Shown here piece by piece: positions 18,831 to 38,524 of a stretch of 64,000 nt of DNA. Where the stretch lies: positions 17,670,001 through 17,734,000 of the forward strand of contig OZ024742.1 of NCBI GenBank assembly GCA_964016885.1. The letters run 5' to 3'. The notes under the pieces were generated by a model, which was given only the letters and a program-made list of their open reading frames with translations, searched no databases and had not been told where the DNA came from. A program made the position numbers and the translations under genes. Each line of letters opens with the position of its first letter. The first letter of the stretch is position 1. The DNA comes from Eledone cirrhosa. Taxonomy: Eukaryota.

Positions 18831-19026
18831 TAATGAAGGAAGTGTGGTAAGGAACCAGGTGGACCATAACGCACCAGAGTACTCGATACTTTGGGTAGTA
18901 GAGTGGGTAATAGGAAAAGTTTAGGACCCCGACGGCAGAGCTCAAGCCGTTTCGACGGCTATTTCTGGACAGAAATAGCTGTCGAAACGGCTTGAGCTCT
19001 GCCGTCGGGGTCCTGAACCTTTTCTT
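18831..19026 (-). mobile_element. Truncated copy of the 38.0-38.2 kb ribozyme element with a ~95-bp palindrome
   Basis: 18831-18970 is the reverse complement of 38060-38198; palindrome AGGACCCCGACGGC...TTTCTG-GA-CAGAAA...GCCGTCGGGGTCCT centred at 18968-18969; TA on both sides. Confidence 0.85.
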
Positions 19027-20329
19027 ATATATATATATATATATGTGTGTGTGTGTGTGTGTGTGTGTGTGTGTGTGTGTGTGTGTGTGTGTGTGTGTGT
19101 GCCCTTATGTGTGTTTTTGAGTGTATCCGTTTATATATGTTAGTACATAGAATATTAGTACCGGCAGTGTTTCTAAAAATGTCGGCATATTTCGAGTATT
19201 GTATAGTTTAAATATGTGTATCTATGAATATCAATGATTAGAAAGAGTTTCCATTAGACATTATGTCATATTTTGAAGTTAATATGTAAAGATTCTCCAA
19301 ACGTCCATATCTTGAGTACTGAATCAACCATATTTGAAGAAATATTTGAAAATGCCCGATAAGTGGTTATTCGAGTGAGTAGTGAATGCCATTTTTGTTA
19401 TTTTCATTAAAGTCCAATATAATTGCCTACTAACGAAAAGCGAATATTTCATTGTGCCGTTTGACAAATTCTCAATTTTGCTGATGACTACTTTCTAAAG
19501 TAGAAAACTAATTTTTCTATGGATAGAAGATGTAGGCGTCTGATTGCATATACACATATTCTTATATTCATTTTCTCGATTCAGAATGATGTGTAATCCA
19601 ATTACGATTCCTGCAGAATTTGATTTCAGAGTCATTATAATCGAAGATATTCATGGAAATGCATTTCACCTGGCTTATTGCTTGCTTCATATATCTATCT
19701 CTTCCACTTTAGCTGAATGTCTTAATATTCGTATCTTTTTTCATTTGTTTTTAATATAACGGTTTGATGTTTCGTCCTCAAATGCTCAAATGCTGATGTT
19801 GTGTCGTGTTCAATGAAAGGCTTTAAACACATTTTTTATTAAATTAATCATTTCTTCTCGATAAAGAAACAATGAGCTAATGAATTGGTAAATGAAACAT
19901 TGACAAATGTTCAGATCGTCTTAATAAAACAATAGATATTCGCCAGTTATAGCAAAAGGCATACATAAAAGATAATAGAATATTGTATAATATATAATGT
20001 GGAAAATGATGTAGACAATGTGAAATGGATGGTAAAATGAAGGCAACGAAAAGGTTAGTTCCCTGGTATTTATCATTATTGTTTTTTTTTTCTTTCGCCC
20101 TAATATTTCGGAACTTAAAAATCCCTAATTCAGAGTATGAGGAACTCTCAGAGCAAAATGTTCCGGTTTTATCGCTTGTATTCGCGACCGTATTCTTTCG
20201 ATCGTTACTCAAGATTCATGACCATAGCTAATGGTTGGCACGAATATAGAATTGAAAGTAGCGAGTTTGGTGTTTATGCCTACCTCCCTTCTTCCAATTA
20301 CCAAATACTGAAGCTGGCGCATTACTGCA

Positions 20330-21530
20330 CCAGCTCCTGCAATTCTTACACTTAATTCAGCCTCCTACCTTTCATCACTCATGAACATGCCCCGGATACT
20401 TGAACGTCTCTATCTGCTTCAGTGGAACTCCATTCACATGTAGAGTGCACTACGCAGGCTTCCTTCAGTGAACGAGTGTCTCAGTTTTCGCAACACTGAT
20501 TTTCATTCCAGCCATGCAGCTCTAGACCTATCAAGTGCAAGTTGGAGATCTTCAGTGAAGTTAAGTAATACCATGTCATCTGCAAATTCCAGCTGACTGA
20601 TTTTACACCCACCAGTCGTGATACCACTTCTAACCCTGCTGAACATCTCAATCCTGTTCATGAAATTAATGAACAGGAGAGGTGAAAGTACACACCCTTG
20701 CCGTAGTCCTACTCCCACATTGAATGGTTTCGACATTTATCTGAACACAGAAACCTAGGCATTTGTAAAGAGACATCAGGGCAACAAGAACCTGGCCATC
20801 GATCCCATACTCCTGCACAACCTTCCACAACAGGTCCCGAGGAAAGTGATCATGTGCCTTTTCAAGGTCTACAAAACACGAATATACCTCTTGGCAATAC
20901 TCCCACGATTTCTCGAAGACCTGCCGAGTTGTGAATATTTGATTGGCTGTATTGCGTCCGGGACGAAAACCACACTGTTCATCAACTAACTTGACCTCGA
21001 CAATCTTCCTGCATTTCTTTACCAGACACTTAGCATGGATTGTACCGGGTAGGTTTAACAAGGAGATCCCTCTGAAAGTGCAACAATCTCTATTGTCTTC
21101 CTTTTTGAAAATTGGGATTATCATGCCCGATTGCCATTGCTTATGTGCCTTTCCAGAGATCCAGGCCACCCGGCACTCACGAGTCAGCCAAAAGACACCT
21201 TCTCTATTTAAGGCTTTTAACATCTCGAGCCGGATTTTATTTTCTCCAGTGGCTGTGCCACATTTGAGCTCTTTAACTGCTCTTGTGAACTCAGCCTCTG
21301 GGAGATTAGTCACCACTCCCAGATGCACCTCGTGTACATCCAAAGATGCTGTTGTAATCGGATTTAGGAGATCAGCAAAGCTTTCTCTTCGCCTCATGAG
21401 GATGCACTTTCTGAAGAGAGAACCCCAGACAGCAGATGTGGAGGAGGGCTTCTTATTATGGAGTCGGTGGATGGTCTGCCAGAACACTTTATTTGCTGAT
21501 CTGAAGTCGGATTCCAGCTTCTTCCTGTAA
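20330..21530 (-). pseudogene. RTE-clade LINE fragment (degraded reverse transcriptase)
   Basis: ANKVFWQTI...PIFKK...RGISLL...EQCGFRPGR...CFVDLEKA, then after a frameshift GLRQGCVLSPLLF...FADD. Confidence 0.88.
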
Positions 21531-22644
21531 TATGTAGAGCGATATAAGGCTTTGCACGATTCATATTTAACTTCCGATTCGATATACTGTCGGGTCCCAA
21601 ATAATAGGGAGATCATCGGGCGTGGAATAAGTGAGGGGTTTGGAAGTGGGGTGTTGGAATAAGTGCGGGGGAGGGGTCGGTAATTTGTCGGTGATATTTT
21701 AAAAGCCAGAATTAGACGTTTAGTTTACATAATGAGACCCCCAACCCACTCTATTTATTTTATAACGTATGAGATTTTTAGTAATGTACTTTTTTGTCAT
21801 GTATAATGTTTTATAATGTCTAAAGAAAATTAAGTGTCGCAGGAATGCTACCACTTAAAATAAGATTTCGCCGGAGATAGATTAGCAATATTAAATGCCC
21901 TGTTCATATGTATTGAGTGGTCATTCAGCTAATAGTTAGACGTTCTATGTAGACTTATAAGTAAAACACACTATTCAGTATATGTATATATATGTACGTA
22001 CACACACACACACACACACACACACAAACATACATAAATATATATATATGTGTGTGTGTGTGTGTGTGTGTGTGTGTGTGTGTGTGTGTGTGTGTGTGTG
22101 TGTGTGTGTGTGTGTGTCAGTGTGTGTGTAAGTATGCGAGAAATAAAATTCTAACTGTATTCATATATATATATATGTGTGTGTGTATGAGTGTATGTGT
22201 CAATTTGTGTGTGTAACGTTATATCTTAATATGTATATAACGTTATAACCGAGACTGCAGTAATGTGTATATAATTATACAACACATATCTAATATGTAG
22301 CCATGTAAATATGCCAGAAAATATTAATTTCCATATAAATTGAAAAAATTCTAAACACATTTAATCGAGTCTCGGTTATCCAATTTGTATGTATACAGAT
22401 AAAACTTTATCACACACCTCGGCTGCTAGTGCACTTATTAATATACACACCTCACACACACATAAACACACACACACACATACATATATATATATATATA
22501 TATAGAGAGAGAGGGAGAGAGAGAGGGGGGGATACATATGTGGGAGTATGATTCACTCCAAGTAACAATGGATTGAATCCCAAACAACTTATATGTGTTT
22601 AAATAGACGGACGGGCTGACGGACAAACAATCAAACATACATAC

Positions 22645-37445: not shown

Positions 37446-38010
37446 TTTCGTGGTAGTCTCTTTAGTATTCTGCCCCCCCCCCCCCCCTTTGTTGACCCGT
37501 CACCGTACGATACACGCACTTATACCTCGTATAAGGGTCCCTTTATTTCCGTCCCACCTAGTTTATTTCTATTATTATTATTTATTTTTTTATTCTACAT
37601 TATATATATATATATATTTCTTTTTTTTTATTTATTTATCTATTCTTTTATTCACTTATTTGTTTATTTATTTATTTATGTATTTCTTTAGCCTAGCAAT
37701 AGCGAGAGACTTAAGTCTTAGTAACCAGATTTTGCTTTTTTTTTTCTCTCTCAGTACCTTTTATAGTTTTACCTTCATCGTTCTACTTACCGTTTCGACC
37801 TCCTCCCCCTCCCCCTTTTCCTCTTTGACCTCACACCCAGCTGTAGCTGGCACTACCAACGCATGAATGGGTCTACTCCACCTCCTCTCCCTTTTTCTCC
37901 TACCGGCAGGTTTAGCTACCCCTTCCCCCACCAACTTGCCATCACAGATTTACTACTAACTTGTGATGTGATCAATCCTGGTGATTATCTCTTTGACCAT
38001 ATATGGAATT

Positions 38011-38104
38011 ACCCCTTGATAAGTTCGGCTATTTAAATACCAGAATAAATTTTCATTCAGTACAGAATTAGCCGTCGAAACGGCTTGAGCTCAGCCGTCG
38101 GGGT
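38011..38104 (+). ncRNA. Type-I hammerhead ribozyme, U3-A8 variant, long stem II, stable stem III
   Basis: ACCCC-TTGATAA-GTTCGGCTA...TAGCCGTC-GAAA-CGGC(ttgagctca)GCCG-TC^GGGGT; perfect stems I and III, GUC triplet. Confidence 0.82.
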
Positions 38105-38467
38105 CTTACTTGTTCCTATTACCCACTCTACTACCCTAAGTATTGAGTACTTTGGTGCGTTATGGTCCACCTGGTTCCTTACCACTTTTCCTTCGTTATA
38201 TATATATATATATATATATACATATACATATGCATATATATATATATATATGACTGATTTTTGCGTTTCGTTTCGCCTTTTCTATATATATATATATATA
38301 TATTTCGTTTCGCCTTTTCTACCCGCCGAATGGCGATAGCTGCCGGTATTTTTGCATAGCTACGGCTTTCTAAATAGTTGTTTACAAACATACCGTATTT
38401 CTTTAGAAATACGAAATTCCAAATATATATATATATATATATATATATATATATATATATATATATT

Positions 38468-38524
38468 CGGATCTAGCTATCGAAACGGCTGGAAATGAGC
38501 CGTCGGGGTCCTGACTCTTTTCCT
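38468..38524 (+). mobile_element. Diverged 3'-half copy of the 38011 hammerhead between TA tracts
   Basis: TAGCTATC-GAAA-CGGCT(ggaaatg)AGCCG-TC-GGGGTC: stem III kept, loop changed. Confidence 0.7.

Follow-up and report, generated by a model that had tools for sequence, protein, structure and literature searches.

The window analysed here is a 64,000-nt stretch of the genome of the octopus Eledone cirrhosa (NCBI GenBank assembly GCA_964016885.1, contig OZ024742.1, positions 17,670,001 to 17,734,000 of the forward strand), numbered below from its first letter. It contains short copies of the pLTR (end repeat) of a Penelope-like retrotransposon (PLE) whose repeat carries a predicted hammerhead ribozyme, and these copies begin at, or within a few nucleotides of, the equivalent of one base, A38059 (+1 below). 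The reading favoured here, with a probability of about three in four, is that the short copies are independent insertions that stop at 38059 because the capped element RNA would start there, and that the head-to-head palindromes among them would be pairs of target-primed run-off cDNAs joined to each other. Judged from the sequences of the inserts, their ends likely record the two 5' ends of the element RNA, and the inserts themselves are likely abortive PLE insertions.

The repeat and the ends of its copies

The most complete copy in the window is a 5'-truncated read-through copy of the PLE 3' end (37205..38197, + strand), which comprises the last ~850 nt of the unit with the whole pLTR end and tail and is followed by (TA)n. 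Compared with an intact unit of another subfamily, it shows 71% identity over 854 nt and 95% over the last 144 nt. Three short copies accompany it, all of them sitting in (TA)n. The copy at 18831-19026 is a head-to-head palindrome embedded in (TA)n with asymmetric arms: a tailed arm on the - strand (18831..18970, equivalent to 38060-38197) and a tail-less arm on the + strand (18970..19028, equivalent to 38063/64-38119), with 1 nt of microhomology at the junction. Between (TA)n runs at 26678..26738 (- strand) lies a solo tail-less arm of 61 nt, +1 to +61, which equals 38059-38119. An old, diverged solo tail-less arm of sister subfamily B (38468..38526, + strand) starts at about +3; it has a single exact match in the whole genome, which rules it out as a large family of its own.

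A preliminary description of this stretch had noted that the copies at 18831-19026 and 26681-26738 start near the equivalent of 38060, that the 18.9-kb copy forms a palindrome centred there, and that the copy at 38468 keeps only the 3' half. These observations hold: the starts are at 38060, 38063/64 and 38059, the arms of the palindrome are head-to-head, and the 38468 copy begins ~3 nt behind the same point. Two details required correction. The sequence given at 38060, GTCCAG, reads GTACAG in the 38.0-kb copy, and the conserved 3' strand of stem II does not begin at 38060; it spans 38066-38074, and 38060 falls in a weak apical extension.

Sequence motifs, together with a likeness judged by eye, identify the element as a Hydra-type PLE. 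Exact-match anchor searches across the 3.0-Gb genome returned 42,882 matches for a 32-nt hammerhead anchor, 34,813 for a 31-nt tail anchor and 304 for the tail-to-body junction. Junction matches ~3.54 kb apart mark tandem units of 3,542 bp (spacings about 3,530-3,545 bp), and a 719-amino-acid open reading frame (ORF) is intact in three of them. The reverse transcriptase (RT) motif YRDD and the VIY..YIG of a C-terminal GIY-YIG-type domain were seen directly in this ORF; a Pfam search with it gave no match at E<=0.01. By eye, the ORF closely resembles Hydra-1_Obim in the supplementary alignment of Craig et al. 2021 (PMC8557442), where the Hydra clade consists of C-terminal EN+ (EN, endonuclease) PLEs.

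Features shared with that clade, as set out in the accessible parts of its description, are the RT and C-terminal GIY-YIG-type domain, the DKG to DKT change (SDKTG here), the CxCX5C linker (CNCPDRSIC), CxxC and CxH motifs (CNLC and CKH, near the C-terminus), the pLTR hammerhead, (TA)n targets (185 of 202 flanks of paired insertions are TA-rich) and an inverted 5'-truncated copy with the tail on one end (PMC8557442). The element differs in having RWR at the place of RWK, a unit of ~3.5 kb where the clade generally stays below 3 kb, and a tail of 78 nt as against 30-40 bp. As in the clade, GxKF/Y is not conserved (GFITY here), and CCHH is absent, with a single Cys inside the GIY-YIG core. The element also shows the general PLE features of a pLTR, partial tandems, an inverted 5'-truncated copy and a tail at one end only; inverted truncated copies and tails are described as standard in PLEs. 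Stubs of 60/140 nt that have fixed 5' ends and number tens of thousands do not figure in the same accessible text (PMC8557442).

Arm ends were mapped in a sample made up of the first 100 places of each anchor on one contig (C1; 914,563 bases including overlaps). Part of the sample was anchored at 38074-38105 and therefore favours longer arms, and the tail-anchored part is free of that bias for tailed arms; bases in listings were counted by eye, using the first places of contigs C1 and C2. The 3' ends of 286 arms fell at 38119 in 111 cases and at 38197 in 120. Among the 261 arms with a defined 3' end, 146 had their 5' end within 38055-38066 (82 of the 122 tail-less arms, 64 of the 139 tailed ones), 7 ended in 37992-38054 and 19 read further. 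The per-nucleotide stop rate was ~0.07 at 38055-38066 and at most 0.017 in every other bin, which is the sharp peak near 38060 that the preliminary description predicted for a map of 5' ends on the consensus. Genome-wide, both arms reach 38059 with 0-14 nt between them in 3,522 palindromes, and (TA)n directly abuts a 38059 start in 448 matches (solo copies); body-bearing copies start at 38056-38065 in 5 of 30 cases. A fixed cDNA length (a 'ruler') is excluded, since 61-nt and 139-nt arms stop at one base. The mini-palindrome inserts are a real, abundant, genome-wide feature.

Palindromes are generally unstable and hard to assemble, and later central deletions in longer palindromes, the spread of one master palindrome, or assembly errors could be invoked for such a pattern. 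Yet not one of 101 insertions has both flanks in common with another, 97 of the 101 junction 20-mers are distinct, and the 448 solo copies start at the same base. Deletion offers no reason for a bias to one arm, nor for C being added at one site and A at the other (both described below), and contigs of four other sequencing runs, compared with the 18.9-kb copy, contain opposite-strand joints together with an identical inner 3' end. These explanations are given next to no weight. The ends are thus neither uniformly distributed nor inherited from one duplicated ancestor, and the central claim of the preliminary description, a recurrent and independent end point made during reverse transcription inside the hammerhead, is upheld.

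Start site, hairpin or RNA cut

The predicted type I hammerhead occupies 38011..38104 (+ strand), based on the minimum-energy fold of the isolated stretch and on pair counts. Stem I is formed by 38011-15/38100-04, the core by 38016-23 (a U3/A8 variant) and 38077-80, stem II with its long apical extension by 38023-76, and stem III with a palindromic loop by 38080-98. For 38005-38110 the minimum-energy structure equals the centroid, with three helices round the core, open at stem I (z -1.55), and 87% of cells in the helices are paired versus 26-47% when the helices are slid; within a 330-nt context, stems I and III fold otherwise than in the isolated hammerhead. Set against the core CUGAnGA...GAAA...UH, most copies are U3/A8 and some C3/A8 or U3/G8, and GAAA and GUC are conserved. 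Three stem II pairs vary on both sides, a level of compensatory change not above shuffles (370/500). Rfam returned no hammerhead match at E<=1, just simple-repeat microRNA look-alikes under the gathering score. The predicted cut, after GUC, lies at 38099..38100 (+ strand).

A38059 stands within an Initiator-like word, TCAGT/TTAGT (38057..38061, + strand), 29-31 nt behind a TATA-like box inside stem II (38030..38037, + strand). This candidate promoter element has its first T at -29 (-31 in other subfamilies) and is absent in subfamily B. A promoter for RNA polymerase II, TATA-like at -29 to -31 and Initiator-like at +1, would accordingly be carried in the DNA of stem II. Further downstream, the inner 3' end of the tail-less arms (38117..38119, + strand) is a UAU able to pair with a (TA)n primer and is the putative RT start site 1 (+59..+61). 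The 78-nt tail and outer 3' end occupy 38120..38199 (+ strand), where UAU 38197-99 is the putative RT start site 2 (+139..+141). Intact units run past the tail into the body, with an ATG at +232.

In a subfamily with a diagnostic upstream C, the first 100 of 1,348 arms reaching 38059 were scored by eye: 40 read through, 60 stop within 0-4 nt, and none stops 5-20 nt upstream of +1. A script recount of the first 30 gave 10 read-through and 20 stopped arms, with base counts in agreement. In the 60 stopped arms, the first cDNA base beyond 38059 is C in 19, A in 6, T in 4 and G in 31 (by eye); G is the templated base there, and 16 of the 31 mark joins with the partner arm. A C added to the cDNA amounts to an extra G in the copy and is read as copying of the cap, the interpretation given to untemplated G at the 5' ends of L1 and SVA in the available text of PMC4859970. 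In four of these 60 arms the final 11-14 nt are reiterated, as would be predicted where a template ends, and the reiteration recalls telomerase-like realignment at such an end. At three junctions (L051, L058 and L143), 12-16 T directly precede +1, likely through slippage or A-tailing at the cDNA end.

A second, minor wall at the predicted ribozyme cut provides an internal control. Here 20 of 39 distinct places start exactly at 38100, and both arms reach 38100 in 266 palindromes; in the first 50 of these (by eye), 27 carry untemplated bases, 16 have blunt, ambiguous joins and 7 carry on with templated sequence. At the cut, the base added first is A in 27, C in 6, T in 19 (mostly complements of A) and G in 2 (by eye). 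The contrast of C and A between the two walls is significant (Fisher p 1.4e-5; 7e-5 without two ambiguous C). A presumably uncapped end thus draws A and the main end draws C, which suggests that the 38059 end is cap-like.

The preliminary description had attributed the end point to reverse transcription stopping at the hairpin, or to processing of the RNA there. In the first of these explanations, RT stalls at the stem II hairpin, or at a protein bound to it, on a longer RNA, and the stalled cDNAs integrate. Positions 38059-62 do lie in the 3' strand of the predicted apical helix, subfamilies A and B both retain a short pairing of this kind, and some arms end 3-8 nt deeper in this helix. The apical helix of stem II is nevertheless the weakest of the four helices (74.5% paired, no compensatory change), and the wall is met there after strong, GC-rich helices have been copied. 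Moreover, none of 100 arms ends at -5 to -20, the added base is C and not A, and family C, described next, stops upstream of stem I. The claim of a hairpin stop is not supported by these data, and stalling is considered unlikely.

Family C is a second hammerhead-bearing family, which served as comparison; it is present in the window as a degenerate palindrome (18536..18621) and has 3,820 genome matches. Its stem II measures 3 bp. Of 100 arms (by eye), ~23 read through, 3 stop 4-7 nt upstream, and the rest end within +1 to +4, counted from a G placed 30 nt behind TATAAATA; this G begins stem I, and the wall is upstream of the whole ribozyme. An extra G is found in 10 of 14 arms that end at this wall (by eye). 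Because family C stops 30 nt behind its TATA-like word and upstream of the ribozyme, the wall appears to follow promoter spacing and not one hairpin. The tails of families A and C are alike, and a similar word follows the TATA-like box in both, with different hammerheads; the promoter-like sequence is upstream of the ribozyme in family C and inside stem II in family A.

The alternative of RNA processing would have a nuclease cut the RNA at the apex of stem II, leaving an uncapped 5' end at 38059 from which the cDNA runs off. Such a cut would explain the sharp wall and the end reiteration equally well and would suit subfamily B, which has no TATA. But the uncapped hammerhead end attracts A where 38059 attracts C, and the -30 spacing holds in families A and C despite their different RNA context, so that a cut at the apex is judged quite improbable. 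What stands of the processing claim is the minor class of ends at the ribozyme cut; that cut is 41 nt downstream, at 38100, and not at the hairpin.

Proposed joining of two cDNAs

Of 101 head-to-head pairs, 100 consist of one tail-less (38119) and one tailed (38197) arm. In 43 of these pairs it is the tail-less arm that extends further 5', by more than 4 nt, and in 9 it is the tailed arm (p 2e-6); in the other 48 the two ends are within 4 nt of each other. Thirteen tailed arms do not overlap the partner arm at all, and the junction gap is -1 or 0 in 37 of 101 pairs. Subfamily tags are identical on both arms in 51 of 70 pairs, against 10.9 expected on shuffling (50 of 52 for common tags). This sharing is consistent with two primings, either on a single RNA or on RNAs from the same locus.

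The preliminary description had explained the inverted duplication by snap-back, in which one cDNA stops, folds back and copies itself into the second arm. The shared tags, the 48 pairs with nearly equal arms and the window palindrome, in which the tailed arm is the longer, all suit this route, and it may apply to a subset. A copied second arm must lie within the first, yet the excess of longer tail-less arms (43 against 9) and the 13 non-overlapping tailed arms contradict this, and a tail-less first arm cannot supply a tail. Snap-back is therefore not supported as the main route, and its probability is put very low. Even less credence is given to self-priming on an antisense template, proposed for rotifer Penelopes and, in the accessible text, the published reading of head-to-head PLE junctions (PMC3846280). 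Both walls can be matched to the sense strand, one to its hammerhead cut with single-nucleotide precision and the other to its TATA/Initiator spacing, and the untemplated bases are on the side expected of the 3' ends of antisense cDNA.

In the favoured reading, both cut ends of the (TA)n target would each prime a cDNA, one per target strand, and RT would start at the two UAU sites, which lie 61 and 141 nt in from the 5' end of the RNA; in the downstream pLTR, these two signals would serve full-length copies. RT would then copy the uncut hammerhead half, run off the RNA 5' end and copy the cap as C, and the two cDNA 3' ends would be joined head-to-head, either at microhomologies of 0-4 nt or by way of small templated inserts. 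Read-through RNA cleaved by the hammerhead would supply a minority of the templates, in the form of the 3' products. Since +1 falls within the ribozyme, a new transcript would carry only part of it at the 5' end; this 5' copy would be unable to self-cleave in cis, and a whole hammerhead would be present only in the downstream pLTR of the transcript.

Several observations weigh against this reading. The evidence for 38059 as +1 consists entirely of genomic signatures. Subfamily B stops at the same Initiator-like word without a TATA at -30 and keeps a 4-bp apical pairing, and for this reason families A and B by themselves cannot separate promoter from hairpin. Arms of the T-subfamilies often run 3-8 templated-looking bases past +1; A is found in 60 of 100 rows, and ~6 have 5-8 templated nt. 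The family C wall is 4 nt behind a CAGT word, in addition to the 3 of 100 arms that end 4-7 nt upstream of it. In solo copies, the added base is G in 27, C in 44 and A in 3 of 74, a count confounded by (TA)n(GA)n and (CA) flanks. Lastly, the identical tags (50 of 52) fit one RNA copied twice and fit snap-back as well.

A wider proposal, offered tentatively and held to be rather doubtful, is that PLEs replicate by a strong-stop route similar to that of retroviruses. Retroviral minus-strand strong-stop DNA is a short cDNA that is begun close to the 5' end of the RNA and finishes by run-off at the cap. The likeness lies in the short start near the 5' end and the run-off; the difference is that priming here would be by target DNA and there is by tRNA. 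After run-off, the 41-nt terminal repeat (+1 to the cut) would allow a jump to the ribozyme-cut 3' end, rebuilding a promoter-bearing pLTR, and the position of the promoter in stem II would keep the ribozyme active at the 3' end only. The mini-palindromes would then be abortive twin-primed strong-stop products that record both the start site and germline cleavage. With regard to the strand jump, the extra G is kept in 0 of 40 read-through arms. At one locus (L204/L205, contig C1, ~27.01 Mb), a T run links a unit that begins at +1 with ~+250 of the unit upstream of it; this is likely the trace of a template jump that followed run-off and led from +1 to a site without homology.

Neighbouring repeats and known systems

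The window holds further repeats. Another PLE occupies 28323-32869, with an RT at 29369-30711 and a GIY-YIG match at 30629-31525, and is flanked by 1.1-kb inverted repeats of 91% identity. A broken PLE ORF at 33880-36682 (- strand) is 65% like the one at 29.4-31.3 kb; it was considered as partner of the pLTR element and rejected, being on the opposite strand and 22% identical (E 0.26). Five more head-to-head palindromes or inverted repeats of unrelated families adjoin (TA)n (11587-12013, 15292-15620, 16719-17639, 26756-27173 and 27816-28229) and are probably other PLE ends. Three ~5.9-kb tandem units of a non-LTR element extend over 40391-58141, with an endonuclease-RT ORF (an open frame of 1,195 amino acids at 52539-56126) and an upstream ORF. 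A second non-LTR element, at 58424-63549, has a restriction-like C-terminus (by eye) and a tandemly repeated 3' ~850 nt. Positions 1-10000 are a 10 kb satellite with strong GT skew.

With metazoan non-LTR retrozymes, the stubs share a type I hammerhead, a palindromic loop 3 and a PLE origin. Retrozymes are described, in the passages available, as tandem arrays of whole hammerheads (bioRxiv 10.64898/2026.07.22.740005; PMC4209133), whereas the stubs contain the 3' half only and are not tandem; the three short copies in the window are single or inverted half-ribozymes. One retrozyme-like derivative was met elsewhere in the genome (L241:994-3200, - strand; contig C2, ~356.03 Mb): a tandem array of at least 8 units of 299 bp with the stem II apex deleted, each unit combining a complete though shortened hammerhead with the tail and the initial ~130 nt of body sequence.

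A search of titles, abstracts and open text passages, with subscription papers and bioRxiv supplements outside it, found no account of PLE 5' ends piling up at a start site or a hammerhead cut. Promoters in pLTRs are already known from the accessible literature, where the formation of inverted ends, the strand copied and the role of the hammerhead are stated as open (PMC8557442, PMC3846280, PMC11167929). If the favoured reading is correct, genome sequence alone would map PLE start sites and would reveal germline hammerhead cleavage, which RNA-seq missed in Anolis. It would also favour sense-strand twin priming over antisense self-priming, give exact predictions for an existing in vitro system, and explain very abundant short hairpin inserts that are open to misannotation as miniature inverted-repeat transposable elements or microRNA hairpins.

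The Adineta vaga Penelopes (Arkhipova et al. 2013, PMC3846280) share with the octopus element head-to-head palindromes at inverted pLTR junctions and TATA- and Inr-like pLTR motifs. Those junctions were read, in the available passages, as antisense self-priming, whereas the present data favour two primings on sense RNA.

The in vitro system is that of an anole PLE, Poseidon PAc (Frangieh et al. 2024, PMC11167929), in which the tail is delimited by two internal RT start sites near the pLTR-ORF junction, and RT extends both target strands and copies mainly uncut RNA. All four features would have their counterpart in the octopus element. The accessible text on PAc reports no primer-template homology, whereas both putative starts here carry a UAU able to pair with (TA)n; it reports no RNA reads ending at the hammerhead cut, whereas genomic copies here end there. 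It gives no account of 5' run-off or of the joining of two cDNAs.

The joining step resembles L1 twin priming, in which, according to the parts of PMC4859970 and PMC11702581 available, both target ends prime, inversion junctions show microhomology or small inserts, and full-length 5' ends carry untemplated G. The two L1 cDNAs derive from different regions of a single RNA; those of the octopus element would both cover the same 60 nt, having been started close to the 5' end of the RNA.

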